This document shows, one piece after another, positions 43,744-64,000 of a DNA stretch of 64,000 bases. This DNA is from a virus. Within the stretch, counting starts at the first letter, position 1. Each line of letters begins with the position of its first letter. The notes under the pieces are model-generated. The model had not been told where the DNA came from. It worked only from the letters and a program-made list of their open reading frames with translations, and searched no databases. The stretch lies in IMG/VR virus record IMGVR_UViG_3300008448_000004, positions 116,935-180,934 of that record; one strand, given 5' to 3'. A program made the translations under genes and the position numbers.

Positions 43744-45429
43744 TTAGTGTTCCTTACGTTCACCAGGACCGTAGTGGTCAAATCTGTGATGTTCTGTAGG
43801 ACTTGCTAGGAGTATTCCGGGTTTAATGTTACCTTTTATAATCTCTTGATGTACAAAGCTCATCCAAGTCTGTTCATAAGGGTATTGCCATTTTGTATCT
43901 AGAAAGACTTTCTTATTTCCTTCTTGACTCATTATCTGAGGCCAGTTACAGTAGTAAATCTCTCCATCAGCGTAGCTTAGGTTAGCATAGTTTTTAATGC
44001 TATTGAACTTAGTACGAGGAGCATTTTTAGATTGACCAGAGACGGGTAATGTGCAGTTGTTAGGCCATAGTTCTTCCCTAACGTGTTGAGGTACATTATA
44101 CCAGGACCATTGTGTGGAGTTATCTCCAAAAAATTCAGAGTAGTTAAACTTAAGGTAATCAAAATTTTCCTTCTTTGTTATCTCAACTACCTTGTTAAAG
44201 AGGTCTGTTATCTTCCTTTGAAACCCGTTTCTACATACAGCTTCAGATCCTTCATAGAATACCATATCGTCTTCGTAGAAGATACAGTACTTATAACTGG
44301 TTTGAGCAAAATGTTCTGCAATAAATTGTCTACCTCCGCAGATGCCTATATTATCTTTTTTAATTTCTTCAAAATCGTATTGATCGCAGAGCATTGAATA
44401 CTCTATATCTGTATCTTTATTAGTTGAATTGTTTAATAGGTATTTTTTTGTCTTAGCTAAAAAATTATTGTCATACTTACTAAACGATTCGCAGAGTTTT
44501 TCAAACTGTTTAGGAGAGTTATAGGTTATTACGTAGAGAGCAACTTCTCTATCATCGACAGCTGGTTTATATCCTTTTAGTTTTTCAAAGAAAGGCCATA
44601 CTAACCCGTTACCTTCCAGTTCAAACCTATGCACCATTTCTGGATATATATGGGAGATTATTGTGAAGATGCTTTCTTCGGTTCCCATAAGTCCTTCTTT
44701 CAAGCTAGTGCTAAGAAATCCGTAGTATACGCTACTTATTTCATTTAACACGTCTTTTCTTCCGCCAAAAAATCCACCTCTATTTACATACTCTACGTAA
44801 TCTGTTTGACAGTAGCGAGCAATCTGCTCTCTAGGAAAGCCATGAATCTCAGTTCCGCCGATGTACGGGTAAGATAAAAAAATAAAGTTACCGTGTATAT
44901 TACAGTAGTTAGGTAAATTATCGAATACTTTATCGTGGTAGAAGTACCCCGGATGTACGGTGCTTGTTATTCCTGCATCAATCCAGAAAAAATATTCTGA
45001 ATTGAAAGGATTAAAGAAGCTAGCGTCGTTTAGTAAGAACATCTTACTCATCACAACTGGGTTATACATCTCTAATGTAGCTTGGGGAGAATCTGCTAAC
45101 CATGCAGCTTGCTCAACCCATCCTGGTTTTTGACGGAGATTGTTTGTTATCTCAGTAAATTCAAACCAAGTTTTCATTTGATCTAAAGAGCGAACCATTA
45201 CGGTTGTGTTGTGCTTTTCTCGATGCTGCCATACAAACTCTTCATCTTCCGGTGCAACGAATATAAACATATTAGCATCAGTTCGCATAAGATCCGCGAA
45301 GCGCTGTAAGTAGTGGTCATAACCTCGTCTAAAGCCTTCACTAATTTCTCCCCTGCCTAAATTCCAGAGAGCTGTCACTATTGTAACTCTATTATTCATA
45401 AAATTAAATTTCTCAATTTTGTCTTCCAA
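43744..45429 (-). CDS. Bifunctional glycosyltransferase: HtrL/YibB-like N-terminal domain plus GT-A C-terminal domain
   Basis: TIVTALWNLGR...YNPVVMSK...NPFNSEYFFWIDAG; second domain VITYNSP...NIGICGGRQ...FYEDD. Confidence 0.75.
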   Translation of the reverse strand: MEDKIEKFNFMNNRVTIVTALWNLGRGEISEGFRRGYDHYLQRFADLMRTDANMFIFVAPEDEEFVWQHREKHNTTVMVRSLDQMKTWFEFTEITNNLRQKPGWVEQAAWLADSPQATLEMYNPVVMSKMFLLNDASFFNPFNSEYFFWIDAGITSTVHPGYFYHDKVFDNLPNYCNIHGNFIFLSYPYIGGTEIHGFPREQIARYCQTDYVEYVNRGGFFGGRKDVLNEISSVYYGFLSTSLKEGLMGTEESIFTIISHIYPEMVHRFELEGNGLVWPFFEKLKGYKPAVDDREVALYVITYNSPKQFEKLCESFSKYDNNFLAKTKKYLLNNSTNKDTDIEYSMLCDQYDFEEIKKDNIGICGGRQFIAEHFAQTSYKYCIFYEDDMVFYEGSEAVCRNGFQRKITDLFNKVVEITKKENFDYLKFNYSEFFGDNSTQWSWYNVPQHVREELWPNNCTLPVSGQSKNAPRTKFNSIKNYANLSYADGEIYYCNWPQIMSQEGNKKVFLDTKWQYPYEQTWMSFVHQEIIKGNIKPGILLASPTEHHRFDHYGPGERKEH

Positions 45430-46313
45430 TCTACGTGGTGTATATTATGTGCTATTCCATAGCTAAGATAAGAAGAATGAAAAGTATTGTAGGTTAATAT
45501 CTGATCGCAGTACTTAAACATAGCCATTTCTGCTGCGGTTTCTTGAGCATGCTCTATAAAATCTGAAACTGATCTTGTGTGAGCGTTTTTGTAACTGTAA
45601 CTGTAGTAAGACGGTATGTCGTGAGTAAAGCGATTTTGAAAAGTGTTAGGGTACTCCGCAGTTATTGTATCAACAAAAAGTCTATTATTAGAACAGATCA
45701 TTATGTCTTGTTCCATGTTTTCTACTATAAACTCTTTTATTTTCCGGATAGGTGCTATATATGCTGGTATTCTATTTAACTCTTCGTAGGTATTCCCTAT
45801 GTGTATATCCTGTATTCTGAAATGTACTCCTTTTATTTTAGTCTTATTATCTCGGAATAGTTCAACTTTATTCAGAACTTCCTGGCTTAGGAATTGCTTA
45901 GATGTATCGAAAAACCAATCGTATTTATGTTCTACTACAGTCTTACGGTAGAACCAAGAGTAGCTATATATCTGCGCTTGGTAGTTTTCTAACTCCGGTG
46001 TAATTTCCGATACGTAAATCCTAATAGAATTTTGAAGCTGTGGTAGTAATTTATACCTCTCAATTAATAGAGGTTCTTTTCCGTAAGAGGTATTTCCTTC
46101 AAAGCAGCTCTGGTCAAATAAACAGTCTAATGGTAGGTCTGAGGGGAAATACTGATTCAACACATCCCAGGTTACCTCTACTTCATAGCCAAGTGTTTTT
46201 AAGTCTTGATATATCTGGCAGCCAGAAAGCATACTGGTGTATTGATCGCCTATTCCTGAAATGCATTGTAGTACTATATATGCTTTCATCAGTTTTCTAA
46301 AATTTCTTCCCAA
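45396..46313 (-). CDS. GT-B fucosyltransferase-like protein (NodZ/GT23/O-FucT clan)
   Basis: SGIGDQ, GVHFRIQD, ICSNN, AEMAMFKYCD...SSYL. Confidence 0.6.
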   Translation of the reverse strand: MGRNFRKLMKAYIVLQCISGIGDQYTSMLSGCQIYQDLKTLGYEVEVTWDVLNQYFPSDLPLDCLFDQSCFEGNTSYGKEPLLIERYKLLPQLQNSIRIYVSEITPELENYQAQIYSYSWFYRKTVVEHKYDWFFDTSKQFLSQEVLNKVELFRDNKTKIKGVHFRIQDIHIGNTYEELNRIPAYIAPIRKIKEFIVENMEQDIMICSNNRLFVDTITAEYPNTFQNRFTHDIPSYYSYSYKNAHTRSVSDFIEHAQETAAEMAMFKYCDQILTYNTFHSSYLSYGIAHNIHHVDWKTKLRNLIL

Positions 46314-47197
46314 ATACGAAAGATAGGTTTAGGTAGGCCTAGAGATGAATCCCATACTTTATAATGAAAAGTGTCTACATCAATACCGGTCTGGTGAGTT
46401 TCAAATACGTGTAGTTGTAATTTAGAAGGCTCTATTGTATCTGTAACATACTTCATTATAGCTTGTTCAAAACACAATATACCTGCTTCAATATGTTTAT
46501 TTACACCTTGTGTGAATAAGTCACAATACTCACGCACAACTTCTTTAGCACCGCCGAAAAATCCGGCGATTGGATAATTTCCCGGCTTAGGAGAATAGTC
46601 TTGGAAAGAATGATATCCATCTTGTGGATTAGTACCCACCAGTGTTACGAACTTCCCGTCAGATTTTTGGGTAAGTTTATCAAGCATTTCTCGATTAAAC
46701 ACCAACGTAAAGTTGTACTGTTTGTAAGGATGCTGGTGGAGATCTGGTGCGTCTTTATCGGGGCAATGTCTGTAGGGGAATATCTGATTTGATTGAAGTC
46801 CTGCATCAACCCAGTAAACATAGTCTACGTCGTCGGTACACTCTTCTTTCATCACATCAAACTTGCCCCACATAACTTCTGGCGGTCTTCCGCTTAAGCA
46901 GAATCTTTCTATTTCTTCCTGTGTTTTATTATCTTGTAGTCCTCTAATTTGTCTTGAGTATTTTATCTCTGAAAGCTCTTTTACTTTTATCTCTAGATTT
47001 GTAAGGTTGTACTCCTCCTTAATTGTCTGAAGCTCGTTTAGATTTCTGGCGTGAGTATAACATACTACCGGGTATTGAAATCCACGGCAATGGCTAATTA
47101 TAGAGCCTAGGTATCTAGATTTCCTTGCTGGCATAGCTCCGGTATATCCTTTCTCAACAATATCCATCCAGTATCCTGTTACTAGTTTTGTTCTCAT
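46289..47197 (-). CDS. HtrL/YibB-like glycosyltransferase
   Basis: KLVTGYW, VMWGKF, YVYWVDAGL, IAGFFGG, FEQAIM; paralogous to the N-terminal domain at 43744..45429. Confidence 0.65.
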   Translation of the reverse strand: MRTKLVTGYWMDIVEKGYTGAMPARKSRYLGSIISHCRGFQYPVVCYTHARNLNELQTIKEEYNLTNLEIKVKELSEIKYSRQIRGLQDNKTQEEIERFCLSGRPPEVMWGKFDVMKEECTDDVDYVYWVDAGLQSNQIFPYRHCPDKDAPDLHQHPYKQYNFTLVFNREMLDKLTQKSDGKFVTLVGTNPQDGYHSFQDYSPKPGNYPIAGFFGGAKEVVREYCDLFTQGVNKHIEAGILCFEQAIMKYVTDTIEPSKLQLHVFETHQTGIDVDTFHYKVWDSSLGLPKPIFRIWEEILEN

Positions 47198-47201
47198 AAA
47201 T

Positions 47202-47993
47202 TTAAAATTTTATATACTTCGTATCATGATATTTAGGGTAAAAGTAAAAGCATTCTGTCAAAGGTACAAACATATGCCAGTTCCAATTCATCTTAGATTC
47301 TAGAGCGGCTACACCGATCTCAAATCCGTCGGGGTAATTTCTTATATTATTTGCAATACTATACCAAAGCATCGATTCCCACTTTTGTACAAAGAGTCTA
47401 AATTTCCAATTGTTTCTAAAGCCTAAAAACTGTTCATTAACTACATGAGCTTCATCCCAAATTTCATGTTCTAGAACATTATAGTCTCTTAATTTTTCTT
47501 CAAAAAAACAATTCTCTAATCCATTACTTTTGTAATTACCTATTTGAGCTGGTCTCTCAAAAGCTACGTCTATGTCCATAACTTCCAAGTTATTAAAAAA
47601 AGTAAAGAGTTTTTCCTCAGCAAAACCGTCGTGTAGTCCCCAATCTCCATCCGCAAAGATAATATATTCAAAAGGTATGCCTTTGTTTAAACAAGCTTTT
47701 AAAGCTAAAACTTTTAAATTTAAGTTAAAAGTAAAACCGTATCCTTCCATGTGCAGTGGAAATTGAGAACGAGCATTAAAGCTCTCTACGGTTGTTATGT
47801 CTAATTTCGGATATTTTTCTTTAAACTCCTCGTATGGTAATCCTACAATATCTGGAAGTTTTTTAAAATCTTCTTCGCAGGTTGTAATATTAAAGTATCC
47901 TTGTTGAGTTTTTTCGTGGATTGCTGTGTAAAAATCCAAACTCTTACTAAAGTATGGCTCTCCTACTGCTAAGGTAGTGAAGAAATAAGTCAT
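47202..47993 (-). CDS. Putative GT-A fold glycosyltransferase
   Basis: FTTLAVGEPY, NLKVLA, IIFADGDW (DxD), NEQFL, DGFEIG; inside the GT cluster. Confidence 0.55.
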   Translation of the reverse strand: MTYFFTTLAVGEPYFSKSLDFYTAIHEKTQQGYFNITTCEEDFKKLPDIVGLPYEEFKEKYPKLDITTVESFNARSQFPLHMEGYGFTFNLNLKVLALKACLNKGIPFEYIIFADGDWGLHDGFAEEKLFTFFNNLEVMDIDVAFERPAQIGNYKSNGLENCFFEEKLRDYNVLEHEIWDEAHVVNEQFLGFRNNWKFRLFVQKWESMLWYSIANNIRNYPDGFEIGVAALESKMNWNWHMFVPLTECFYFYPKYHDTKYIKF

Positions 47994-48682
47994 AGTAAAT
48001 GGGTTATTTTAATAGTATCGTCTCCGTAAGGACCGTTATCGTGTACAAAATAAGGATTTATATTCTTTAAAACAACTTCATTTCCTTCTATATTGACAAA
48101 TTCTTTAGCTTTATGAGTGCTAAAAAATAATTTATAGTTCTGATCCACTCCTATATCTTCTTTAAGTAAATATTGTATAGACCATATACTTTGATCTGTC
48201 ACTCTCTCAGGATAGTTCTGGTGTATTATATCTTCTAGATGGGCTACTATGCTATCAGTTGCACCTAAATAAAGGCCGCTGTTTAAGAATGCAGCAGGAC
48301 CGTATACTTCCTTGGTATTGTATAGATGTGTGTAACTGTTTATAGGCCACAGTTCTTTTTCTCCGCAAAACATAATAGACTTTCCAAAGGTGTGAAAAGT
48401 CTCTATAAGATCTTTTGGATCTCTGTAGAAATTAACATCCAAAGCATCCATGAATAGTAGGTATCTATATTTGCCCTGTATGTTTTCTTTAAGGTAAGGT
48501 AGCAGGTAATCTATTTTATATGCACATAGTTTCTCATAATATGAAGCATCTTCAGGCAAGCCACTAAAGCGAGCAATATGTACGTCTTCTTTGTCGTAGT
48601 ATTTTAAAGCATTCTCTAGAAAGATAGGCATCCTATCTTCCGGGTAATTAAAAAATACTGTGATAATTGCTAGTTCTTTCAT
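47990..48682 (-). CDS. PLOD/LH3-type glycosyltransferase domain protein
   Basis: LFMDALDV, FCGEKELWP, FLNSGLYLG, DQSIW..QYL, IGVDQNYKLF, VHDNG. Confidence 0.75.
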   Translation of the reverse strand: MKELAIITVFFNYPEDRMPIFLENALKYYDKEDVHIARFSGLPEDASYYEKLCAYKIDYLLPYLKENIQGKYRYLLFMDALDVNFYRDPKDLIETFHTFGKSIMFCGEKELWPINSYTHLYNTKEVYGPAAFLNSGLYLGATDSIVAHLEDIIHQNYPERVTDQSIWSIQYLLKEDIGVDQNYKLFFSTHKAKEFVNIEGNEVVLKNINPYFVHDNGPYGDDTIKITHLL

Positions 48683-49296
48683 TCTACAATAAAGTCTTTT
48701 CGTATGAATAAATAATCTTCATGTACTAACTCTCGTGTTTCCGGGTTAAAATTAGTCCCTAGTCTCTCTCTTTTTATAAAACCTAGTTCTTCCATATAAG
48801 AAGTAACTTCAGATCCTTGTGGAGCTCCTGTATTGTATTCTACTCTTGCTAATTCTAATATAACTCCTTTAGCTTGTTGTATAAGATTCTTACCGCCTTT
48901 TAGTATGTCTAGTTCAGATCCTTGAGTATCAATTTTAATTAAATCAAATACTTTATTCTGAAAAAGTATATCTAAAGTTGTAGTTGTTAAGGTGTGTTGT
49001 TTTATTTTATCTTCTGCAAAGAAATAAGTTTTCTCTCGATAAAAAGAATTCCCTGTACATCTAAATTGTAGAGTGCTGATAAAAAGGGTTGCTTCTTTTT
49101 CTACATCACTAACTGCTCCTAGATAATAATCAACTCCTAGAGACTGTAGTGCTTCTTCGCATTCGGGATTTGGTTCTATTAAATAGTAGTATGCGTCAGG
49201 GAAATACCCTACAGATTGTCCGTAGAACTCTCCTATATTAGCCCCAATATCAAGTATAGACATCGGTGTAAAGTAATATTTGACTGGTCCAACCAT
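48679..49296 (-). CDS. FkbM-family methyltransferase
   Basis: LDIGANIG, IEPNP, TTLD, LIKIDTQGSELDILKGG. Confidence 0.88.
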   Translation of the reverse strand: MVGPVKYYFTPMSILDIGANIGEFYGQSVGYFPDAYYYLIEPNPECEEALQSLGVDYYLGAVSDVEKEATLFISTLQFRCTGNSFYREKTYFFAEDKIKQHTLTTTTLDILFQNKVFDLIKIDTQGSELDILKGGKNLIQQAKGVILELARVEYNTGAPQGSEVTSYMEELGFIKRERLGTNFNPETRELVHEDYLFIRKDFIVE

Positions 49297-49297
49297 A

Positions 49298-50266
49298 CTA
49301 GGCGTTTAAAACTTTTTCTATAAAATTTAAAATATACTCAGGATTAAAGTAATCTGGTAGTTTATTGTCTACAAAGTAGGGCTGTGTTACTATATGCTTA
49401 TACAGCTCATCATTACTATCAATCTCTTTAACTCTTTCTACTACCTGGTCGAAAGTATCGTACTCATGACAGTTTATAAAAGCTTCAGGATTAAAACCAT
49501 CTTCGAGTATTTGACTATTTCCATAGAAGATAGGTATTGTATTGGCAGCAAAAGCATGTATCATCTTCTCATGTGTAAAGTAGGGTAGGTTGCTGGACTG
49601 CACTTGTATTGAGAATTTACAATTGCTTAGAAACTCTACCTTGCTCTTATAACTATCACCGTCTAATCTCATGTATCTTGCGGTTGCTTCTTCCGGTGGT
49701 ACATTAGTTATCCAGCCACCAGATGCTCTGACGAACTTGTAGTCGGTTAATTTATTAAAAAGCTCAATACGGGGAGGTATGCTGGAGTTTTGTACTACTC
49801 CGCAGAAGTGTTTCTTTCTAGCTAAAATGGTATCTCCGTCTCTTTGCTGCAATAACCAGCTGTAAGGAGTATCTACAAGCTTTGATTCTTCGTAGAGGCC
49901 CCATGCCGCTGTTGTATTATGTAATTGCATTCTAAGATACCTTGGATGTTCTTCAGGTTGAGGTCCTATGGCAAAATAATTACTTCCTTCGTTTAGTACT
50001 GATTGATGGTTTGAAACTATTTCGCCGGAACAGAAGATTTTTTTCACATTACTACTGTAACTATCTTGCCCTCTAGCTAGCTTACCTGTTACATCGTCTA
50101 TCATATCGGTAGAGAAGTAAACATTAGAGTAGAAGAGTAAATCGGGGTTTTCCGAATCTACTATTACGTCGTATTTCTGTTCTAAAATAGATTTAAAATA
50201 AGTAAACCAGTATATCATTGACTGGTTTGGAAAGTTACAGCGGGTAATTCTAAGCGTCGGCTTCAT
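49298..50266 (-). CDS. GT10 alpha-1,3/4-fucosyltransferase
   Basis: RKKHFC..V.N, RIELF..L..YK.V.SGG, KVEFLSNCKFSI, YFTHEKMIHAFAANTIPIFYG, FNPEAFIN. Confidence 0.85.
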   Translation of the reverse strand: MKPTLRITRCNFPNQSMIYWFTYFKSILEQKYDVIVDSENPDLLFYSNVYFSTDMIDDVTGKLARGQDSYSSNVKKIFCSGEIVSNHQSVLNEGSNYFAIGPQPEEHPRYLRMQLHNTTAAWGLYEESKLVDTPYSWLLQQRDGDTILARKKHFCGVVQNSSIPPRIELFNKLTDYKFVRASGGWITNVPPEEATARYMRLDGDSYKSKVEFLSNCKFSIQVQSSNLPYFTHEKMIHAFAANTIPIFYGNSQILEDGFNPEAFINCHEYDTFDQVVERVKEIDSNDELYKHIVTQPYFVDNKLPDYFNPEYILNFIEKVLNA

Positions 50267-50915
50267 GTTCTAATATCTCGTAGTATTTATGTATTAAGTT
50301 ATCTGATCCAACTACTGGTACAAATCCAAATAGATCACAGTCTACAGTATCTTCCCAGTATATTGCTAATTGTATTCCTTTTGAGTAGCCTTTAGCTAAT
50401 TCATCTGAGCGAGGATTTTTTTCAGTAAATCCGGTTTTTGGTAGGATTTGAAGTCTGTTGTTCATAACATTGAATATGAACTTATGATGAGGATTTCCTC
50501 TATAGTAATTACCGTAGAGAAAAGTAAGTTCTTCATATTTTGAAGGAATAGCTATAAATCCTTTTTTAGAAATAACTTCTAGTAGTCGTATAACTTCGAC
50601 AGGATTGTAGATATCTTCTAGTGTATGGGAACATATAGAGTAGTCAAACTTACCATTTTGAGCTACATACTCTAATAGTTCGTTCCATGTACTTTTGTCT
50701 TGTAGGTTTATAGTAAAAGCTGTTATACCCTCCCCCATTATTTTAAACTCCGAAGGTGTAAGTACATCAGCTACGTATTTGCACTCTGGGTAACTCCAAA
50801 AATAAATCCCTGCTCCTACATCTATAGCTCTGTAGTTTTGCTCTGCTATAAGAGCTTTAACGTCCGTTCTACCTTGAGAACCATCTCTACCTTCATACCA
50901 CCACTTGGTAATCAT
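50250..50915 (-). CDS. Class I SAM-dependent methyltransferase
   Basis: IDVGAG, FDYSICSHTLEDI.NP, HHKF. Confidence 0.8.
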   Translation of the reverse strand: MITKWWYEGRDGSQGRTDVKALIAEQNYRAIDVGAGIYFWSYPECKYVADVLTPSEFKIMGEGITAFTINLQDKSTWNELLEYVAQNGKFDYSICSHTLEDIYNPVEVIRLLEVISKKGFIAIPSKYEELTFLYGNYYRGNPHHKFIFNVMNNRLQILPKTGFTEKNPRSDELAKGYSKGIQLAIYWEDTVDCDLFGFVPVVGSDNLIHKYYEILEHEADA

Positions 50916-51964
50916 TGTTGACTGTTTATAATATCTTGAAGAATATTGGTTATATTATATGTTAACTTCCAATCAGGGAAGTCTTTTCTAAACTTCCTTG
51001 TATCAGAGATCCACCAGATGTGATCACCGATTCTATTTTCAGGAACATACCTGTAGACCGCTTTCTTTCCTGTAAGTTGTTCGGTTATATCGAACGCTTC
51101 CAGTATAGAACAGTTAGCATCTCTAGCTCCTCCTAGGTTATAAACTTCTCCTACTTTCGGATTTTTATAAACTTCATGAAAGGCGGTAACTACATCATAG
51201 GAATGTATATTACACCTAACTTGTTTTCCTTTATATCCAAATATTTTATACTCTGTTCCTCTGAGTACGCATTTAACAAGGTAGTTTAGAAATCCATGCA
51301 ATTCGGCGCCGTTATGTCGACCTCCGGTTAAGCAGCCGGGTCTAAAAATTGCTGTTTTCATTCCGAAGTATCTTCCGTATTCTTGAACGTATATATCTGC
51401 AGATACTTTAGAACAGCCAAATAAACTGTGTTTAGTGTTATCTATAGAAAAGTATTCATCAATTCCTTCGTAGTACTGATGTTCTTGTGGTAGATCCCAA
51501 CGTCTTTCTAGTTCAATCAACGGTAGCTTATTGGGATTATCTCCGTATACCTTACTTGTAGAAGTAAATAAGAAAACAGCTTCAGGGCAGTATTTTCTAG
51601 TTAATTCAAGTAGATTCAAAGTGCCTGTGGAGTTTACTCCGTAATCAGTGAAAGGCTCTTTAGCTGCCCAATCATGAGAAGGTTGAGCTGCTGTATGTAT
51701 TATAAGTTTCAGATCTGTTCCGTAATGTTGAAATATCTTCTCTAAAGAATCATAGTCGCGGATATCTGAGGTTATATTAAGTAGGTTGGGTATTGTGTTA
51801 TTGAGCTGTTCTGTGTTTTTTTCTACACTACCTTCTTCTCCAAAGAAATACTTTCTCATATTATTATCTACTCCGACTACCTTGTCGAAATAGCTTGAAA
51901 AGTAGGTAACTGCTTCACTTCCTATAAGCCCACTGGCTCCTGTTATTAATACTATATCTGCCAT
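50912..51964 (-). CDS. NAD-dependent NDP-sugar epimerase (CDP-paratose 2-epimerase RfbE-like)
   Basis: TGASGLIG, HTAAQPSHD, STSKVYGD, SLFGCSK, VQEYGRYFG, LHGFLNYL, RIGDHIWW. Confidence 0.85.
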   Translation of the reverse strand: MADIVLITGASGLIGSEAVTYFSSYFDKVVGVDNNMRKYFFGEEGSVEKNTEQLNNTIPNLLNITSDIRDYDSLEKIFQHYGTDLKLIIHTAAQPSHDWAAKEPFTDYGVNSTGTLNLLELTRKYCPEAVFLFTSTSKVYGDNPNKLPLIELERRWDLPQEHQYYEGIDEYFSIDNTKHSLFGCSKVSADIYVQEYGRYFGMKTAIFRPGCLTGGRHNGAELHGFLNYLVKCVLRGTEYKIFGYKGKQVRCNIHSYDVVTAFHEVYKNPKVGEVYNLGGARDANCSILEAFDITEQLTGKKAVYRYVPENRIGDHIWWISDTRKFRKDFPDWKLTYNITNILQDIINSQQ

Positions 51965-51971: not shown

Positions 51972-52583
51972 TTACGGTTTCATTTTTAACATCCAGACAA
52001 CTTCTTTTCCTTTCTGTGTAAGATCATTAGGGAGATCTACTAATCCGTTGTCGTTAATACTACTACCTATATGTGAATATGCTAATTCCCACCAGTTCCA
52101 TAATTTTCCTTTAACTCTATTATCAAAATCCGCTTGATCTTCTGCATAATCATGCCCTCCAATTACGTCACCGGACTTTAATGCAGAGCTAAATGTATTA
52201 AATTCATAAGCTTTATTAGCTCCGTCACATAAAACAAGAACTCTTCCAGCGGTATTGCGTATCTTAGAAGCAACTTCTTCATCAATTTCCGGTGATCCGA
52301 TTCCTTTCTCTAAAAAATTAAACTTGTATTGCTCAACAACTTCCGGGAGTCCTTGCCTAACGTAAGGGTCGTAACTGTCTATGATTAGGTCTAATCCAAG
52401 TTCTTCTACAATCTCACATAGAGCAACGGTAAGCCCTCCATAGGAAGTTCCTATTTCGATTATTAAAGAAGGCTTTACTTCCGATAGTAGTTCGGCCATG
52501 AATGTTCTAATGTTAGGGTGTTGCTGTATGACTGCGTTTGCTCTTCCTGTCTGCCACCAGCCTTTGTCTAGGAAATCTTCCAT
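51972..52583 (-). CDS. SAM-dependent methyltransferase (CmcI/Methyltransf_24-like)
   Basis: IIEIGTSYGGLT, LCDGANKAYE, LKSGDVIGGHDY. Confidence 0.75.
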   Translation of the reverse strand: MEDFLDKGWWQTGRANAVIQQHPNIRTFMAELLSEVKPSLIIEIGTSYGGLTVALCEIVEELGLDLIIDSYDPYVRQGLPEVVEQYKFNFLEKGIGSPEIDEEVASKIRNTAGRVLVLCDGANKAYEFNTFSSALKSGDVIGGHDYAEDQADFDNRVKGKLWNWWELAYSHIGSSINDNGLVDLPNDLTQKGKEVVWMLKMKP

Positions 52584-55219: not shown

Positions 55220-55227
55220 AATAAATA
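55220..55227 (-). promoter_or_regulatory. Late-type motif TATTTATT upstream of the glycosylation cluster
   Basis: 5 nt upstream of ATG 55214. Confidence 0.5.
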
Positions 55228-55249
55228 TCTTTTTGCTAAGAAATGTTAA

Positions 55250-56147: not shown

Positions 56148-56777
56148 TTAATTTAAGTCTTTTACGTAATCTGTGCCATTGTAGTATTGCCAATAGACCT
56201 TGTAGAATCCCTTAGCTAATAGGTTCTGATACACTGCTTCTGTAAAGGTGTTGTCATACAGATGTGGAGCCGGTACGTTACTATCGATATTCATGTTTTG
56301 CGTTCCGAGGTAGATCCCAGCTCCGTTGGTTGCAATTATCGATCCTGTATTCAGTACTAGCTTTGCGGTTGTGTAAAACTGTGAGTGATCAGCATCTAGA
56401 TTATCAAAATATATTCCATCATACTTAGTTGTTAGAGTACTAAAAGCTTCTTGCCAACTTGAATTAATGATAGTAACGTTACTTTTTCCTGCAGCCCAAT
56501 TTTGAGCATACTGATAGATCGTATTATTAATTTCTACGCAAGTGTATGAAGCAATATTGGAATTTATAAACTTAGTTGCGCTGATACCTAGCCCGAATCC
56601 TACTTCTAATATATGCCCTCCATTCTGGCTTACAATTTCTGCGGATTTTTCTTCTAGGTTTTTAAATCCTTCGTGCATTAAGGGTGTAAATCTTGTATTA
56701 TCAGGTGTAGTATAGTATATACTACCTGATTCGATATTCACTTCGTTATGTTTTCTATAATGTAGTAATTCAAGCAT
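56148..56777 (-). CDS. GAMT/Rmt2-like SAM-dependent methyltransferase
   Basis: LMHE...GGHILEVGFGLGISA...CVEIN...W...SWQE...YDGIYFD follows the GAMT/Rmt2 motif order. Confidence 0.7.
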   Translation of the reverse strand: MLELLHYRKHNEVNIESGSIYYTTPDNTRFTPLMHEGFKNLEEKSAEIVSQNGGHILEVGFGLGISATKFINSNIASYTCVEINNTIYQYAQNWAAGKSNVTIINSSWQEAFSTLTTKYDGIYFDNLDADHSQFYTTAKLVLNTGSIIATNGAGIYLGTQNMNIDSNVPAPHLYDNTFTEAVYQNLLAKGFYKVYWQYYNGTDYVKDLN

Positions 56778-56789
56778 AGTTCAAATAAA

Positions 56790-59700
56790 TTATGGACAGT
56801 ACTGGAATGTGCCGAACATTGGATTCACATAAGTATTAATGTTAATAAATGTATTACCTGTTACAGCGGCACTTGTAAATAGTGTTGTACTAGGACAGTA
56901 TGTAGCGGTATTAAGCGGACAAGTACCTGCAGTGCCTTGGTCTGCATTGTAGTATATATCAGTCGCTAGGTTAACGTCCTCTACTCTAACAGAAACTGAT
57001 TGTCCTGAGGTTATTTGTATAGTGTTCATGAAGGTACAGACATCAGTAACTCCGTGTGTAAACCAGAAGTTCCAACTAGCTCCTGCATTGTTGGACCAGT
57101 ACACGTCTACACTGTTAGGTGCACTATTAGATCCAAATCTATGATATACATCTACATCAAATTCCGGCGGTATTGAAGTGGGGGTTTGGGTGGGGGTTTG
57201 GGTGGGGGTTTTGGTGGGGGTAACCGTATTTGGAGGCGTAGCGGTTCGGGTAGGTGTAGGTGTTGGAGTCTTACTTGGACAGGCTCCTTGAGATAATACG
57301 TAGCCTGGTATTCCGTCCCAACCTACGAGGTAACAGTTGGTTCCGTTTGATACATATTCATTTTTAGTACCTGTACAGTTTGAATTAACGTACAAGGTAC
57401 ATCCATCGGATAAGCTAGGACAGTTAGAGTAGTAGGTTTGAGCATTTTCTGGGATTAGAGAGCAGGCTGTAGTACAATCTCCTCCAAAATAAAGGGTACC
57501 GAGATTATAACACGGTAAGGTTGGTGTCGGTGTACGGGTAGGGGTTTGGGTTGCGGTAGCTGTAGGGGTCGGGGTAAGAGAAGGACAGGTAGAACAAGTT
57601 GTTATACCGATTACTTGACCTGATGCGTTAATCTGGATAGAATACACTCCAGACCCGCCCCAAGTTGTTAAGAACCATTGGCTTGCTCCATTAAAAGGTG
57701 TCGTTAGTGGTGAGTTTGAGTATACAACATCGTTTATATTAGGAGTAGTATCTCCTGGAGCTACATAACCAGTTGTGCTATAGGTGGTTAACCTACAGGC
57801 TGTACAAGCGTCTAGTTGCGGTGTTGATAAACTTATAGGCTGCGAAGGTGAAGTCGGTGTAGGAGTTCTAGTATTGGTAGGCGTATTAGTAGGGGTTTGA
57901 GTAGGAGTTATGGTATTAGTAGGTGTTTGTGTTGGTGTTTGTGTTCTAGTTTGTGTAGGAGTTATGGTATTGGTAGGAGTGTTGGTTGGAGTTTGTGTTC
58001 TAGTCTGTGTAGGAGTTATGGTATTAGTAGGTGTGTTAGTTGGAGTTTGTGTTCTAGTTTGTGTAGGAGTTATGGTATTTGTAGGTGTTTGTGTTGGAGT
58101 CTGCGTAGGGGTATTAGTTGGTGTGATTGTATTAGTGGGGGTTTGGGTTGGTGTTTGGGTTCTAGTTTGAGTGGGTGTTATGGTATTTGTAGGTGTGTTA
58201 GTTGGAGTTTGTGTTCTAGTTTGTGTAGGAGTAATAGTGTTGGTGGGAGTTTGAGTTGGAGTTTGAGTCCGAGTTTGAGTAGGAGTTATAGTATTTGTGG
58301 GAGTATTGGTAGGAGTTTGTGTAGGGGTATTAGTAGGTGTGATTGTATTAGTTGGAGTGTTAGTTGGAGTTTGAGTTCGAGTTTGAGTAGGAGTTATAGT
58401 ATTTGTGGGAGTATTGGTAGGGGTATTGGTAGGGGTTTGAGTAGGAGTTATAGTATTTGTGGGAGTGTTAGTTGGAGTTTGAGTTCGAGTTTGAGTAGGA
58501 GTTATGGTATTGGTAGGAGTGTTGGTTGGAGTTTGTGTTCTAGTTTGAGTAGGAGTTATAGTATTTGTGGGAGTGTTAGTAGGTGTTTGAGTAGGGGTTT
58601 GTGTTGATGTTTGTGTTGGAGTAATGGTATTAGTGGGAGTATTGGTAGGTGTTTGAGTTCGAGTTTGTGTAGGAGTTATGGTATTAGTAGGTGTGTTAGT
58701 TGGAGTTTGAGTAGGGGTATTAGTCGGTGTTATAGTGTTAGTAGGAGTATTAGTAGGAGTTTGTGTTCTAGTCTGTGTAGGAGTTATGGTATTAGTAGGT
58801 GTATTAGTCGGTGTATTGGTTGGTGTTTGAGTTGGAGTTGTTGTGTTTGTAGGTGTATTGGTCGGTGTATTGGTAGGTGTTTGAGTCCGGGTTTGAGTGG
58901 GGGTATTAGTAGAGGTTTGAGTAGGTGTTATGGTATTGGTAGGAGTGTTGGTTGGAGTCTGTGTTCTAGTTTGAGTAGGAGTTATGGTATTAGTAGGTGT
59001 GTTAGTTGGAGTTTGTGTTGGAGTTTGAGTAGGGGTTGATGTATTGGTAGGAGTGTTAGTAGCTGTATTAGTTGGTGTATTGGTTGGAGTCTGTGTTCTA
59101 GTTTGGGTAGGAGTTGTGGTATTAGTAGGGGTGTTTGTTGGTGTATTAGTAGGAGTGTTTGTGGAGGTATTGGTAGGAGTTTGTGTTGCAGTAGGAGTTT
59201 GAGTAGCGCCAGTTGTTTGGGTAGGGGTTTGAGTACTGGTTTGGGTAGGGGTATTAGTTGGAGTTATTGTCCGGGTCGGAGTATTTGTTGCTGTGTTAGT
59301 TGGAGTTTGAGTCGGAGTATTAGTAGGTGTACTGGTAGGTGTTGTAGTTCTAGTAGGAGTTTGTGTTGGTGTGTTTGTTGGTGTATTAGTAGGTGTTGTA
59401 GTTCTAGTAGGAGTTTGTGTTGGTGTGTTTGTTGGTGTATTAGTAGGTGTAGTAGTAGGTGTGTTAGTCGGAGTTGTTGTCCGGGTCGGAGTATTTGTTG
59501 CTGTATTGGTTGGAGTTTGAGTCGGAGTATTGGTAGGTGTCCTAGTTTGAGTAGGAGTATTAGTAGGTGTTTGAGTGGAAGTTTGAGTAGGAGTATTAGT
59601 AGGTGTGGTAGTTCTAGTAGGAGTTTGTGTTGGTGTGTTTGTTGGTGTATTCGTAGCTGTCTGTGTAGGTGTTGTAGTATTCGTAGGAGTATTGGTTGGA

Positions 59701-59993
59701 GTTTGAGTTCGAGTTTGGGTAGGGGTGTTAGTTGGTGTAGTAGTTCTAGTAGGAGTTTGTGTTGGCGTATTGGTAGGTGTGGTTGTAGGAGTGTTAGTAG
59801 GTGTTTGAGTGGAAGTTTGAGTAGGAGTATTAGTAGGAGTTATTGTTCTAGTAGGGGTTTGTGTTGGTGTCTGAGTAGGGGTTTGGGTAGGAGTTTGAGT
59901 GCTCGTGGTAGTAGTAGTAGGCGTAGGTGTAGGTGTTGCACACGGTCCTCCGGGGCATCCTAGTTGAAATCTGTATTTTGCCGTTATTGCCAT
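56790..59993 (-). CDS. Mucin-like Thr/Pro-rich protein with Cys-rich C-terminal modules
   Basis: ~690 aa of T-x alternation ([16 protein letters not shown]), then two Cys-rich modules and an Ig-like domain ending GTFQYCP. Confidence 0.85.
57860..59940 (-). repeat. In-frame coding tandem repeat (12-nt / 4-aa unit, 54-nt higher-order unit)
   Basis: Degenerate ACN-CCN-ACN-(AAY/CAR) units; exact 41-nt copy at 58273 and 58381, 108 nt apart. Confidence 0.9.
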
Positions 59994-60004
59994 ACTTTAC
60001 TTAA

Positions 60005-60012
60005 TATAAATA
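60005..60012 (-). promoter_or_regulatory. Late-type motif TATTTATA before the mucin-like gene
   Basis: 11 nt upstream of ATG 59993. Confidence 0.55.
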
Positions 60013-60028
60013 GTTTTTCTCATACTTC

Positions 60029-63000
60029 TTACCCTGGTATTAAAGCAAATCCTGTTATTACATAATCATCGTTACCTCCACCACCGCCTGTTACCGTACT
60101 GGTATTACCTGAGATAGTAGCCGGTAAGCGTTGATCTCCGGATTGATGTTCTAGGGAACTATCGTTACCTTGAGTTGTTGCGAAGAATGCATCTTGTGCA
60201 AGAACGTTAGGTGAGGTGTTAGTGCCACCAGCAAAGTCACTCCAGGTATTATCATCTGCCGATGTACATAGTAGAACTACCATTCTGTTATTTCCTGATG
60301 TAGTTACAGAAGGCATTGTAGCTGTACCGGAGGTTCCAGAAGCAGTATTTAGACCTTCGTAGGGAGTGCCGGTTGTTACTACTCCTCTATACCTTACCAT
60401 TCTACCTATTTTAGTTACTGCAGCATCGGCTCCAAAAGCTACGGCTAAGTTACCGGTTTCTGCTCCGTTAGATCTTCTATAAAAATTATAATGTCTTATA
60501 GTAGTTCCTCCTGCTATAGGTCCGTTAATTAGAGTAAAACCAGTAGGTGTTGTTACAGTTGTTGTTTGGTTTCTCACAGAAACAGTTAGAACAAAAAGAT
60601 CGTTTGAAGCTAGACCAGTTACAGGGTAAGGTACTGATAAGTTACCTGTAACTGCTACACCAGTTCCTGTACCGGCTTGTTGAAAGGTAGGGAAAGCAGC
60701 AGCTGTAGGTGTAGGAGTTTGAGTCCTAGTTTGAGTTGGAGTTTGAGTCCTAGTTTGAGTAGGGGTTTGGGTAGGTGTTGTAGTCCGAGTAGGAGTATTA
60801 GTTGCAGTTTGAGTTGGTGTTTGAGTCCGAGTTTGAGTTGGGGTGTTAGTAGGAGTATTGGTTGGAGTCTGTGTAGGAGTGCTGGTAGGGGTTTGAGTAG
60901 AAGTGGGAGTAGGAGTTTGAGAATCAGAAGGTGGGGTATTAGTTGGAGTTAATGTAGCAGTTGGTGTTAAAGTCGAAGTATTAGTAGGAGTTTGAGTGCT
61001 TGTTTGAGTAGGTGTATTTGTAGGTGTAGTAGTTGCTGTAGAAGTAGGAGTTATAGTGTTTGTGGGAGTGTTAGTAGGAGTTTGAGTTCTAGTTTGAGTA
61101 GGTGTGTTTGTAGGTGTATTAGTAGGTGTTTGAGTCCGAGTCTGAGTAGGGGTTGTAGTATTTGTTGGAGTGTTAGTTGGTGTATTGGTAGAGGTTTGAG
61201 TAGGGGTATTAGTGGGGGTTATTGTATTTGTAGGAGTATTGGTAGGTGTTTGAGTTCGAGTTTGTGTAGGAGTTATGGTATTGGTAGGAGTGTTGGTTGG
61301 AGTTTGAGTAGGTGTGTTTGTAGGTGTGTTTGTAGGTGTGTTAGTTGTTGTAGATGTCTGCGTTGGAGTTTGTGTTGGAGTGTTGGTTGCTGTATTGGTA
61401 GGTGTTACTGTACTTGTAGGTGTTTGAGTGGCTGTATTAGTAGGTGTATTAGTTGGAGTTTGAGTCCGAGTTTGAGTAGGTGTGCTTGTGTTTGTAGGAG
61501 TCTGAGTAGCTGTGTTTGTTGGTGTTACAGTATTAGTTGGAGTGTTAGTTGGTGTATTAGTGGGAGTTTGTGTAGGTGTGGTAGTAGGTGTTGTTGTTCT
61601 AGTAGAAGTTTGAGTAGGGGTTTGTGTTGATGTTTGTGTCGGTGTACTGGTTGGTGTTACGGTATTAGTTGGAGTATTGGTAGGTGTTTGAGTTCGAGTC
61701 TGGGTAGGAGTTATTGTATTTGTAGGAGTTTGGGTTGGAGTTGCTGTTTGTGTCGCAGTTACGGTTGGAGTTGGGGTTGGTGTAGTATCACATGCACAAA
61801 TTGCGGAAGATGTTACATGCTGTACGAATAATTGCTGCCCTACTCCTGAGTTATAAACGTAATTAAATTCAGCGTGTATTACGTCGTTTGGATATGCATT
61901 AACAGGTACGTTGACTGTACTGACAATACTACCTCCGTACCATATTACCACGCAATTGCAGGTATCATTACTACCGTCTATAATGGTTACATCAATACAG
62001 ACTGTTCCATTAGTTGTACCTACGTTTACGTAATATTCGTTAGGTGATAATCCGCTAGATGTTAGTACGTTATTGGTTGTATCTACCGGGCAATCAAAGA
62101 CATTTTGCTGTGTTTGAGTTGGTGTAGGAGTCTGCGTTGATGTCTGTGTAGGGGTTATTGTAATAGTTACGGTAGGGGTGTTAGTAGGAGTTTGAGTTGG
62201 GGTATTAGTCGGAGTATTAGTTGCTGTTCTTGTAGGTGTGATCGTATTAGTTGGAGTCTGCGTTGCGGTTTGAGTAGGAGTTTGAGTTGGTGTTTGAGTT
62301 GGAGTGGTAGTTCTAGTTGGAGTTTGTGTTGCTGTTTGAGTAGGGGTATTTGTGGGAGTGTTAGTTGGTGTATTTGTAGGGGTTGTAGTGTTGGTTGGAG
62401 TTTGTGTTGATGTTTGTGTCGGAGTATTTGTAGGTGTTTGAGTAGGAGTAGTAGTTCTAGTTGGAGTCTGGGTAGGGGTGTTAGTAGAAGTCTGGGTAGG
62501 GGTTATGGTATTAGTAGGTGTTTGAGTTGGAGTTTGAGTCCGAGTTTGAGTAGGGGTTTGGGTAGGTGTTGTTGTTTGAGTAGGAGTATTTGTTGCAGTG
62601 TTGGTTGGCGTATTAGTGGAAGTCTGAGTAGGGGTTTGAGTAGGAGTGGTGGTTCTAGTTGGAGTTTGTGTTGCTGTTTGAGTAGGGGTATTAGTAGGTG
62701 TTTGGGTTCTAGTTTGAGTGGGGGTTATGGTATTGGTAGGAGTATTAGTCGGAGTCTGTGTTGATGTTTGTGTCGGAGTATTTGTAGGAGTCTGCGTTGG
62801 TGTAGTAGTTTTGGTTGGAGTCTGTGTAGGAGTATTAGTCGGAGTCTGTGTAGTTGTATTTGTTGGTGTTACAGTATTGGTAGGAGTATTCGTTGAGGTT
62901 TGAGTGGGAGTCTGTGTGGGAGTGATCGTATTAGTTGGAGTATTTGTAGGGGTTTGAGTCCGAGTTTGAGTAGGTGTGTTAGTCGGCGTATTGGTTGGTG

Positions 63001-64000
63001 TTTGTGTAAGAGTATTTGTTGGAGTTACCGTATTAGTAGGAGTGTTAGTAGCAGTTTGAGTAGGGGTTTGTGTTGGAGTGTTTGTTGGTGTTGTTGTACG
63101 GGTTGGTGTTTGTGTTGGGGTCTGCGTTGCAGTACTTGTAGGAGTGTTTGTAGGTGTTATTGTATTTGTAGGTGTGTTTGTTGGAGTATTAGTTGGTGTA
63201 TTAGTTGCGGTGTTAGTTGGGGTTTGCGTAGGAGTGGTAGTTCTAGTTGGAGTTTGAGTAGCAGTGTTCGTCGGTGTCTGAGTAGGAGTATTTGTGGGGG
63301 TTTGAGTAGAAGTTATAGTATTGGTAGGAGTCTGTGTTGCTGTCTGTGTGGGCGTGTTTGTTGGTGTTGCTGTATTAGTAGGAGTCTGAGTTGATGTCTG
63401 AGTAGGGGTTTGTGTTGGAGTGATAGTGTTAGTTGGAGTATTGGTAGGAGTTTGAGTCCTAGTTTGAGTAGGAGTGTTGGTAGGGGTTATTGTATTAGTA
63501 GGAGTATTAGTTGCAGTTTGAGTAGGGGTTTGAGTAGGAGTTGTAGTTCTAGTTGGAGTTTGTGTTGGAGTATTAGTTGGGGTCTGTGTTGCAGTATTTG
63601 TAGGAGTTATTGTATTAGTTGGAGTATTGGTAGGAGTTTGAGTCCTAGTTTGTGTTGGTGTATTAGTTGCAGTTTGAGTAGGGGTTTGTGTATTTGTAGG
63701 TGTGTTAGTTGCAGTATTAGTTGGGGTTTGAGTAGCGGTCTGGGTAGGGGTGTTTGTATTTGTGGGTGTGTTTGTTGGAGTTTGACTAGGAGTATTGGTA
63801 GGTGTTGTTGTATTTGTAGGTGTGTTTGTTGGTGTCTGAGTAGCTGTATTTGTTGGTGTCTGTGTAGGTGTTCTAGTTTGAGTAGCTGTTTGAGTAGGGG
63901 TGTTAGTAGGTGTATTAGTAGGTGTTTGAGTTGGTGTTGTAGTACGAGTAGGGGTTTGAGTAGGTGTGTTTGTTGGAGTTTGACTGGGGGTGTTAGTAGG
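60029..64000 (-). CDS. Giant mucin-like protein, 5'-partial (at least 1323 aa; the track's 640-aa ORF is truncated)
   Basis: Frame continues upstream of the GTG at 61951 through a Cys-containing beta domain into TPT repeats; open at every point checked up to 64000. C-terminal beta-sandwich ASNDLFVL...TPTGFTL...FYRRS...YRGV. Confidence 0.8.
60700..64000 (-). repeat. In-frame coding tandem repeat blocks (60700-61780 and 62110-64000)
   Basis: Same T-x-T-x units, interrupted by one non-repetitive domain at about 61790-62105. Confidence 0.9.

Follow-up and report, generated by a model that had tools for sequence, protein, structure and literature searches.

Thr/Pro-rich proteins at the end of a large phage genome

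The virus record IMGVR_UViG_3300008448_000004 of IMG/VR is 180,934 bp long and is rated 100% complete by CheckV. Its final 64 kb is the window analysed here; coordinates are window positions unless marked 'genome', and L-numbers such as L016 are labels of fetched comparison loci. Every long open reading frame (ORF) of the window lies on the minus strand, and the gene content includes a myovirus tail sheath, a major head protein, head-tail adaptor-like and tape-measure-like proteins, a primase and a PD-(D/E)XK nuclease. At the DNA level, 24 kb of the window gave zero matches to cultured phages by megablast, and no close relative of this genome was present among the fetched loci. The last part of the window, positions 43744-64000, is the subject of this report. 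It carries three proteins with threonine/proline (Thr/Pro) tracts followed by a block of twelve enzyme genes, which is led by a glycosyltransferase (GT) of family GT60. The Thr/Pro proteins are listed below, Thr-x denoting tracts in which every second residue is Thr.

55250-56134, minus strand: Thr/Pro protein of 294 amino acids (aa); N-terminal domain of about 75 aa, Thr/Pro tract at about residues 79-185 (about 100 residues), then a C-terminal Cys-containing domain
56790-59993, minus strand: Thr/Pro protein of 1067 aa; Thr-x over residues 20-715 (696 residues), then three small Cys-rich globular domains with short Thr/Pro linkers
60029-64000 (genome 176966-180934), minus strand: C-terminal part, at least 1323 aa, of a giant Thr/Pro protein; 5' end open at the contig end

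A first-pass annotation of the sequence had described three co-oriented proteins with about 110, 690 and over 1000 residues of Thr-x alternation, which were re-measured as about 100, 696 and 985 residues. The largest one is composed of Thr-x tracts of 624 and 361 residues, a Cys-containing middle domain of about 110 aa and a C-terminal globular domain of about 220 aa. The two large proteins contain 40-42% Thr, and their x positions are occupied by P (36-39%), N and Q (about 20% each), then R, I, A and S. With such tracts they are Ser/Thr/Pro-rich tandem-repeat proteins of the kind that serves as acceptor in mucin-type systems. Thr codons of the tracts are distributed among ACT, ACA and ACC, and the underlying DNA repeats match at 66-85% with periods that are multiples of 6, mostly 54 or 66 bp. 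The periodicity is therefore maintained at the protein level and is not a fresh product of slippage. Small Cys-containing globular domains between and after the tracts give the proteins the appearance of beads on stalks. A plus-strand reading of the repeats was ruled out, as open ORFs there reach at most 286 aa, compared with 1067 and 1323 aa on the strand of the neighbouring genes.

The N-terminal domain of about 75 aa is common to three Thr/Pro proteins, the 294-aa protein and two giants, and is possibly an attachment module. The 1067-aa protein matched no Pfam family, and a part of its C-terminal region matched phrog_21885, of unknown function. For the C-terminal domain of 60029-64000, the protein-atlas neighbours were only uncharacterised phage proteins and unnamed phage clusters, and cultured phages yielded no tblastn match to this fibre domain.

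The contig starts and ends within Thr/Pro repeats. At the opposite end, genome 3-2645 encodes the N-terminal 881 aa, with start codon, of a Thr/Pro protein that shares the strand of 60029-64000 and is cut off by the contig end. The simplest reading of these sequences is that this fragment and 60029-64000 are parts of a single gene of more than 2,200 codons split by assembly. A direct end-to-end join into one gene was ruled out by mismatched reading frames, and sequence must therefore be missing within the repeat. A fourth giant, a Thr/Pro protein of 1136 aa, is encoded at genome 3644-7054, and its 308-aa and 512-aa neighbours have shorter Thr/Pro linkers. All seven ORFs with Thr/Pro tracts, including the four at the opposite contig end, form one block, and no Thr-alternating ORF was found in the rest of this genome. 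The block is situated directly downstream of gp25-like and gp6-like baseplate-wedge genes (genome 17.5-19.9 kb). In myoviruses, fibre genes are usually kept downstream of the baseplate-wedge genes. Capsid and sheath genes of this phage are more than 30 kb away from the Thr/Pro and GT60 region.

Two compositional features were seen along with the tracts. Ten tRNA genes are present at genome 86197-90807, among them a run of Glu, Gln(TTG), Pro(TGG), Thr(TGT) and Trp at 2-5 nt spacing, plus Arg(TCT). The Thr, Pro, Gln and Arg anticodons fit ACA, CCA, CAA and AGA, codons that are abundant in the tracts, a match that is suggestive only. At 58000-64000, GC skew rises to +0.82 per 2-kb window and AT skew falls to -0.44 over the Thr/Pro genes because of their ACN and CCN codons on the minus strand; this could mislead skew-based origin calls.

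The enzyme block and its gene families

The enzyme block begins 790 bp downstream of the 294-aa Thr/Pro gene. Its twelve genes, in order of transcription, are as follows.

53200-54459, minus strand: GT60-family glycosyltransferase, 419 aa (PF11397, E 1.3e-72, 245.7 bits vs cut-off 21)
52600-53196, minus strand: probable class I methyltransferase, 198 aa (weak; BLASTP to the CmcI-like neighbour E 0.008, O-methyltransferase YrrM E 0.21)
51972-52583, minus strand: CmcI / rhamnosyl O-methyltransferase-family protein, 203 aa (PF04989, E 4.4e-9)
50912-51964, minus strand: nucleotide-sugar epimerase of the short-chain dehydrogenase/reductase (SDR) type, 350 aa (PF01370, E 1e-33)
50250-50915, minus strand: 221-aa protein, possibly a methyltransferase (sub-threshold methyltransferase matches only, E 0.03-0.08)
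49298-50266, minus strand: GT10-family (alpha-1,3/4-fucosyltransferase family) protein, 322 aa (PF00852, E 1e-10, 42 bits vs cut-off 23.9)
48679-49296, minus strand: FkbM-family methyltransferase, 205 aa (PF05050, E 1.3e-17)
47990-48682, minus strand: protein with PLOD-type GT domain, 230 aa (PF25342, E 2.8e-15)
47202-47993, minus strand: conserved 263-aa protein, possible GT-A glycosyltransferase (invariant FxDxD in alignment only)
46289-47197, minus strand: second HtrL/YibB-like protein, 302 aa (paralogue of the N-domain of 43744-45399; hhalign probability 97.5%, E 6e-12)
45396-46289, minus strand: possible fucosyltransferase of the NodZ/FUT8/O-FucT superfamily, 297 aa, ATG at 46289 (language-model features only)
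43744-45399, minus strand: two-domain glycosyltransferase, 551 aa, ATG at 45399 in an ATGA overlap with the preceding stop (PF09612, E 2e-17, 63.9 bits vs 24.1)

The junctions range from a 34-nt overlap to a 16-nt gap, in agreement with the earlier description of twelve overlapping or abutting genes within about 0.8 kb of the Thr/Pro genes. Among the families listed in that description, GT60, the PLOD-type GT, GT10, the RfbE-like SDR, two HtrL/YibB-like proteins (one by Pfam, the other by hhalign) and the FkbM and CmcI methyltransferases were recovered, while the NodZ-like protein, the remaining methyltransferases and the GT-A assignment of 47202-47993 came out weak. Five block enzymes gave nothing from PHROGs, Pfam or NCBIfam.

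The SDR 50912-51964 is nearest to the CDP-tyvelose 2-epimerase RfbE (PDB 9rl0, E 2e-35; 1orr, E 9e-30), other SDRs matching at 1e-17 or weaker. For 45396-46289, hidden Markov model searches gave zero matches; in its nearest named clusters (score 0.95-0.97), 12-94% of the members have NodZ, FUT8_N_cat or O-FucT domains. The 263-aa DxD protein had zero Pfam, NCBIfam, PHROG or PDB-profile matches and no relation to the HtrL-like protein by hhalign, and no PDB entry matched the second HtrL-like protein by sequence or by profile.

The product of 43744-45399 has an HtrL/YibB-like N-domain followed by a second GT-A domain. Its model (predicted local distance difference test score, pLDDT, 89.8) classes it as a tandem GT-A enzyme, and its top PDB matches were the tandem-GT enzymes LARGE1, LH3, K4CP, mimivirus R699, COLGALT1 and PmHS2 (E 1e-10 to 1e-6).

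No membrane segment was found in the twelve enzymes (maximum 19-residue hydropathy at most 1.56), and a signal peptide was absent in all Thr/Pro proteins checked. Mucin-type systems work in a secretory compartment; with neither signal peptide nor transmembrane segment in the enzymes or the Thr/Pro proteins, the pathway would here be cytoplasmic.

Outside the block, a pair of genes at genome 71706-72632 and 63164-63856 (L222, L225) encodes a GDP-mannose 4,6-dehydratase (GMD; 382 bits to the gmd equivalog) and, as its other member, a GDP-L-fucose-synthase-like (Fcl-like) SDR, distant from the GT genes. With GT10 and NodZ-like genes in the block and GMD and Fcl-like genes elsewhere, the sugar supply of the phage fits its putative fucosyltransferases. 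An additional SDR gene is present at genome 99427-100161.

The lead enzyme is related to initiators of mucin-type glycosylation

The membership of 53200-54459 in GT60/PF11397 is firm. Residues D90-S-H92, a DxH motif, and H227 are invariant in 43 aligned phage sequences. DxH instead of DxD is a signature of GT27 and GT60 (PMC7185993). A model built from the 43-sequence alignment (pLDDT 90.4) is composed of a GT-A catalytic domain from residue 1 to about 300, followed by a beta-rich C-terminal domain of about 110 aa. In the PDB, the 29 best matches of this model are without exception polypeptide N-acetylgalactosaminyltransferases (ppGalNAc-transferases), enzymes that initiate mucin-type glycosylation in animals and Toxoplasma, with Z 19.3-22.5 and a root-mean-square deviation of about 3.5 Å over about 275 residues, and generic GT-A folds ranked after them (Z at most 18.1). 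The relation of GT60 to GT27 claimed in the first-pass annotation is thus seen both in family membership and in fold. Sequence identity to the GT27 structures is merely 12-16%, and sequence and profile searches of the PDB with the GT60 protein were empty.

GT60 enzymes add alpha-linked N-acetylglucosamine (alpha-GlcNAc) to Thr of Trypanosoma cruzi mucins (PMC9472816, PMC3769586). They also modify mucin-type domains of Dictyostelium, whose Gnt1, the family member that acts on Skp1, is soluble and cytosolic (PMC8724618). From its sequence and its model, 53200-54459 is predicted to be an initiating polypeptide O-N-acetylhexosamine (HexNAc) transferase. A prolyl hydroxylase was not found in the phage by PF13640 or PF13759. 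A hydroxyproline route of the Gnt1/Skp1 type was ruled out on this ground, and Thr is therefore a likelier acceptor than hydroxyproline.

The beta-rich C-terminal domain (about residues 310-419) is conserved in the closest relatives and missing in shorter, distant ones (L117, L096, L032). Its role may be acceptor recognition, as the ricin domain of GT27 suggests by analogy.

GT60 genes are linked with Thr/Pro genes across viruses

The linkage was examined in both directions. In the forward test, a degenerate DNA pattern for (TPTx)n retrieved at least 120 loci from IMG/VR, and nine of them (L016, L023, L024, L032, L050, L084, L096, L117 and L191) possess homologues of the block enzymes. Eight of these nine contain a GT60 homologue, 25-54% identical and mostly adjoining the Thr/Pro ORF; in L016, HtrL-like, CmcI-like and DxD proteins adjoin four Thr/Pro ORFs.

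For the reverse test, a single-sequence pattern search for GT60 in IMG/VR was empty and an alignment-based search was needed, which recovered at least 539 viral contigs; the best 80 loci were examined. An ORF with at least 30 Thr-alternating residues was found within 10 kb in 62 of these 80 closest loci. As a control, 14 sheath-centred loci were inspected, and none of them had a Thr-alternating ORF. Gene order was scored in the 72 GT60 loci with at least 1.5 kb of upstream flank, an ORF being called adjacent when it lies on the same strand at most 250 bp upstream. A Thr-alternating ORF was adjacent upstream in 44 loci, farther upstream in 11, downstream only in 4 and absent in 13. When counted per GT60 cluster, adjacency was found in 27 of 36 clusters at 85% identity and in 8 of 11 at 70% identity, and the pairing recurs in GT60 lineages just 25-40% identical. 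Two of the 13 empty loci have looser Pro-Thr linker proteins adjoining GT60. In two larger records that lack a tract near GT60, TPTx repeats turned up at other places in the genome, and two records without any tract are fragments (CheckV 15-19% complete). The first-pass annotation had stated that its proposal would fall if the GT cluster occurred independently of Thr/Pro genes in relatives; tested both ways, the link held, and the GT60 gene is genetically tied to its presumed acceptor.

The two-domain GT is the most constant partner, with a homologue in 76 of the 80 GT60 loci. Homologues of the second HtrL-like protein were seen in 38 loci, of CmcI in 13, of the DxD protein in 8, of GT10 in 6-7, of the PLOD-type GT in 5 and of FkbM in 1. 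Those of GT10 are full-length (about 40% identical) in four loci and partial in two more. The enzymes 52600-53196 and 50250-50915 have a single homologue each, in L156 and L159 respectively. This variation from locus to locus resembles, by analogy, that of mosaic polysaccharide loci.

Bacterial relatives of GT60 were found in at least 168 species genomes of Pseudomonadota, Bacteroidota, Verrucomicrobiota, Acidobacteriota and Actinomycetota. Some of them are situated beside giant ORFs with Thr/Pro or Thr-Thr-Pro-Ala repeats, for example in L275 (2,683 aa) and L301 (1,097 aa). In the Enterobacterales GT60 loci, no Thr/Pro-rich ORF was present within 10 kb.

A late-promoter-like motif precedes the Thr/Pro genes and the block

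The motif MTATTTATW occurs at 19 sites in the window against 8.3 expected, and none of 100 shuffles reached 19. Eighteen of the 19 sites read along the coding strand, and most precede the start of a structural gene by 8-25 nt (for example at 9686, 13757, 19655, 27832, 55220 and 60005). Two copies concern the region under study.

60005-60013, minus strand: late-promoter-like motif CTATTTATA, 12 nt upstream of the 1067-aa Thr/Pro gene
55220-55228, minus strand: late-promoter-like motif ATATTTATT, the final copy ahead of the enzyme block; the next copy is at 41958-41966

No copy was found between 41967 and 55219, which includes the enzyme block. The earlier observation of copies at 55220 and 60005 and none in the cluster was reproduced, except that the copy at 55220 precedes the gene of a conserved 100-aa protein and not a Thr/Pro gene. 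The motif core TATTTATA is the reverse complement of the T4 late promoter TATAAATA, here read on the coding strand. From its sequence and placement, MTATTTATW is a candidate for the late promoter of this phage. With copies at 60005 and 55220 and none inside the block, the Thr/Pro genes and the enzymes would share this putative promoter.

Other genes of the region

Three further genes lie among the Thr/Pro genes or between them and the enzyme block.

56148-56777, minus strand: possible S-adenosylmethionine-dependent methyltransferase, 209 aa, between two Thr/Pro genes (Methyltransf_25, E 0.001, under the curated cut-off)
54912-55214, minus strand: conserved 100-aa protein of unknown function; homologues adjoin Thr/Pro ORFs in L029, L108, L156 and L188
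54470-54910, minus strand: SegE-type GIY-YIG homing endonuclease (PF19835, E 7e-28)

The 100-aa protein and a 354-aa protein of the fibre block (genome 8652-9713, L206) have a common C-terminal motif, YVTT[IV]GLYN..N.LL.VAK..KP, which by sequence appears to be an unannotated conserved C-terminal module of the fibre region. The SegE-type endonuclease is probably a mobile insertion and not a member of the pathway. Its homologues adjoin Thr/Pro genes in six loci (L029, L030, L108, L155, L156 and L188), and it therefore seems to travel together with the module.

Comparison with cultured phages and known glycosylation systems

Among cultured phages, GT60 was found only in XacN1 and Xoo-sp13 of Xanthomonas and in CM1 and RAS14 of Stenotrophomonas, and a full-length two-domain GT was found only in the same four (GT60 44-48% and two-domain GT 40-42% identical). 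In XacN1 and Xoo-sp13, the two that were inspected, the genes for GT60 (48%), the two-domain HtrL-like GT (42%) and a second HtrL-like protein adjoin baseplate-wedge genes. A protein of 3,313 aa in this neighbourhood has Pro-Thr linkers, and ORF350 of XacN1 is Thr/Pro-rich too. XacN1 virions showed at least two Schiff-positive glycoprotein bands, and phage GTs were suggested by the authors as their makers (PMC5852040, Supplementary Fig. S4). This staining is the only experimental hint that a GT60 module yields virion glycoproteins. The XacN1 group differs from the present phage in its modest Thr/Pro content (short linkers, plus ORF350 in XacN1) and in having a carbamoyltransferase and a GT9 in place of the set of fucosyl- and methyltransferases, and in the XacN1 paper the GTs were not connected to Thr/Pro proteins (PMC5852040).

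The protist GT60 enzymes (T. cruzi TcOGNT1/2; Dictyostelium pp-alphaGlcNAcT2 and Gnt1) share with the phage enzyme the PF11397 domain, the DxH motif, a GT-A fold nearest to GT27 and Thr/Pro-rich acceptors. Mucins and gp72 of T. cruzi possess PTVTPTP-type tracts (PMC3630849). The Gnt1/Skp1 pathway also pairs a soluble cytosolic initiator with a two-domain extender, the bifunctional PgtA, and in Dictyostelium a part of the O-GlcNAc is capped with fucose (PMC8724618). Unlike the protist enzymes, the phage GT60 would act in the bacterial cytoplasm on non-secreted proteins and with unrelated extending enzymes. Its extra beta-rich C-terminal domain is said to be absent in protist enzymes, and the prolyl hydroxylase of the Skp1 route is lacking in the phage.

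Of all solved structures, those of animal GT27 enzymes match the phage enzyme best (Z up to 22.5, with about 275 residues of the catalytic domain aligned). These enzymes also have a DxH metal site and the same order of catalytic and C-terminal domains, and they act on dense Thr/Pro tandem repeats to give bottle-brush glycoproteins. They differ in sequence and in location, as the phage enzyme stands outside any secretory pathway, and the phage tracts are strictly Thr-x whereas animal mucin repeats are not. The 551-aa partner resembles the tandem GT-A enzymes LARGE1, K4CP, PmHS2, LH3 and COLGALT1 in possessing two GT-A domains; of these, LARGE1 forms a polymer on alpha-dystroglycan, in its mucin-like domain. 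Template modelling scores of 0.21-0.28, low because the domain orientations differ, and an identity of 8-11% separate it from them.

Virus-encoded soluble glycosylation of surface structures, supplied by the virus's own nucleotide-sugar synthesis, is found for the chlorovirus PBCV-1 capsid and mimivirus fibrils. Mimivirus R699 was among the fold matches of the two-domain GT, and GT60-like proteins occur in Megaviridae and Pandoravirus. Giant viruses differ in having eukaryotic hosts, other acceptors and other linkages. The mycobacteriophages Che8, Corndog and Myrna, in the work of Freeman et al. from 2023, reportedly O-glycosylate their own virion proteins in the cytoplasm of the host by means of phage GTs and methyltransferases encoded near structural genes. 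The sugars there go to short tails at the C-termini of capsid and tail-tube subunits and not to giant dedicated repeat proteins.

A proposed pathway and its alternatives

The presence of Thr/Pro proteins in the tail-fibre block, together with twelve enzymes led by a relative of mucin initiators, suggests that the phage probably coats its own fibres with sugar. Judged from the genes, the structural models and the analogy to known systems, phage-encoded cytoplasmic O-glycosylation of its own Thr/Pro fibre stalks is the likeliest reading. The first-pass annotation had proposed densely O-glycosylated, fucosylated and methylated fibres, and this idea gained partial support, from the identity of GT60, its linkage, the solubility of the enzymes and the plausible fucosylation. 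The roles that it suggested for such fibres, in adhesion, in shielding or as a decoy for glycan-foraging Bacteroidota, are speculative.

Gene content, families and folds, the lack of membrane segments, the promoter-like motif and the linkage of GT60 with Thr/Pro genes are observations, while the acceptor and its sugars, the succession of the steps, the place of the product in the virion and its physical role are inferred, as follows. Late in infection, Thr/Pro-tract proteins would be made, their small Cys-containing globular domains spaced along (Thr-x)n stalks up to about 700 residues long, and about a dozen soluble enzymes would be expressed from the same late-type promoters. GT60 would move the first sugar, by family analogy alpha-GlcNAc, from a UDP-sugar onto Thr hydroxyls of the tracts. 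The glycan would then be extended by the two-domain HtrL-like GT, as the constant partner of GT60, and by a lineage-variable set comprising the second HtrL-like protein, the PLOD-type GT, GT10, the NodZ-like enzyme and the DxD protein. GDP-fucose from the phage GMD and Fcl-like enzymes would be among the donors, as would the RfbE-like epimerase product, and sugars would be O-methylated by the FkbM-, CmcI- and other methyltransferases. Fucosylation and O-methylation of the glycan are probable from the gene families present. The outcome would be stiff, hydrated and protease-resistant bottle-brush stalks which hold the binding domains off the particle.

General O-glycosylation of Bacteroidota is periplasmic and uses a D-(S/T) sequon. 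Modification of the tracts by such a host system was rejected by inference, as the Thr/Pro proteins have no signal peptide and their tracts have almost no acidic residues.

Several points weigh against glycosylation of the stalks by the phage. HtrL/YibB is named for an Escherichia coli protein of unknown function whose gene lies in the lipopolysaccharide (LPS)-core region. The NodZ-like, three methyltransferase and DxD-protein calls are weakly supported, and the globular domains of the Thr/Pro proteins gave no annotated match in PHROGs, Pfam or NCBIfam. About 111 of the 120 (TPTx)n loci are without block enzymes within their short flanks, and Thr/Pro tracts therefore do not require GT60. Conversely, a Thr-alternating ORF is missing from the 10-kb surroundings of GT60 in 13 of 72 loci. 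Many of the 80 GT60 loci belong to related phages with conserved gene order, and the counts therefore overstate the number of independent events. Only 20 of the best 80 bacterial GT60 loci, from several phyla and with no bacterial base rate, have a Thr/Pro-rich ORF within 10 kb, and the bacterial neighbourhoods are weak support for the link. The Schiff-positive bands of XacN1 were not assigned to proteins in the paper (PMC5852040). Both glycosylation by the phage GT60 and the placement of the Thr/Pro proteins in the virion are predictions from the genes.

The empty loci also bear on an explanation in which the enzymes glycosylate other phage proteins of the capsid or tail, and the Thr/Pro tracts are bare flexible spacers in a neighbouring fibre module. 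It agrees with the wide occurrence of Pro-Thr linkers without GT60 and with the mycobacteriophages, whose GT genes near structural genes are said (Freeman et al., as above) to act on capsid and tail-tube proteins. The gene order argues otherwise, since in 44 of 72 loci GT60 directly follows a Thr/Pro ORF of its own strand and the pairing returns in very distant GT60 lineages. The characterised GT60 and GT27 enzymes all use Thr/Ser/Pro-rich acceptors, and in this phage the capsid and sheath genes are far from the block. We consider such bare spacers unlikely.

Remodelling of host LPS, capsule or envelope polysaccharide, or the making of a free oligosaccharide, for instance to block superinfection, appears quite improbable. 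Loci for O-antigen and capsule typically contain HtrL/YibB, GT10, NodZ, FkbM, CmcI and RfbE-like enzymes, LPS synthesis likewise employs soluble GTs in its cytoplasmic steps, and GT clusters of jumbo phages were interpreted in a comparative study as modifying capsular polysaccharide (PMC7824862). Nevertheless, the twelve enzymes are devoid of membrane segments and are accompanied by no flippase, polymerase or polyprenol-phosphate GT, and none of the twelve is thus a membrane protein like GtrA, GtrB and the type-specific Gtr of Gtr-type O-antigen systems. Action on host glycan precursors in the cytoplasm keeps a small probability. The block lies behind the structural-gene motif, its linkage to Thr/Pro genes is conserved across loci, and characterised GT60 members are all protein O-glycosyltransferases, the fold being nearest to ppGalNAc-transferases.

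Modification of phage DNA bases is very improbable: phage GTs classically glucosylate hydroxymethyl-pyrimidines and the C-terminal half of 43744-45399 gave a sub-threshold match to the TET-associated GT PF20691 (E 0.031), but the sole thymidylate-synthase-family gene is a true ThyA (TIGR03284, 282 bits vs cut-off 108), no hydroxymethylase was found, no Tet/JBP match was obtained (a weak point, as that search gave no match in any control genome either), twelve enzymes including fucosyltransferases and sugar O-methyltransferases exceed the needs of DNA glycosylation, and the promoter context is of late type.

Implications for tailed phages and the GT60 family

Virus-encoded glycosylation of own structural proteins has already been documented in chloroviruses, mimiviruses and a few mycobacteriophages. 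In the literature searched, no publication was found on a GT60 initiator genetically tied to giant Thr/Pro repeat proteins. Beyond the glycosylated stalks proposed for this phage, a broader picture is offered tentatively, at a little under an even chance. A widespread group of tailed phages (at least 539 IMG/VR contigs with the enzyme) may run a cytoplasmic mucin-type O-glycosylation, in which a GT60 initiator and a co-inherited tandem-GT extender act on Thr/Pro stalks of up to more than 2,000 residues. The variable enzyme set would diversify the glycan in the manner of O-antigen loci, giving hypervariable bottle-brush fibres that affect adsorption, stability or evasion, and prokaryotic viruses would hold a deep reservoir of GT60/GT27 machinery. 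If this is true, many environmental phages would carry a glycocalyx-like fibre coat, with consequences for host recognition, particle survival and contact with polysaccharide-rich matrices. The low-complexity giant ORFs of viromes would need reinterpretation. Prokaryotic and viral GT60 enzymes would gain their first function, and dense O-glycosylation would have a tractable model in the bacterial cytoplasm.

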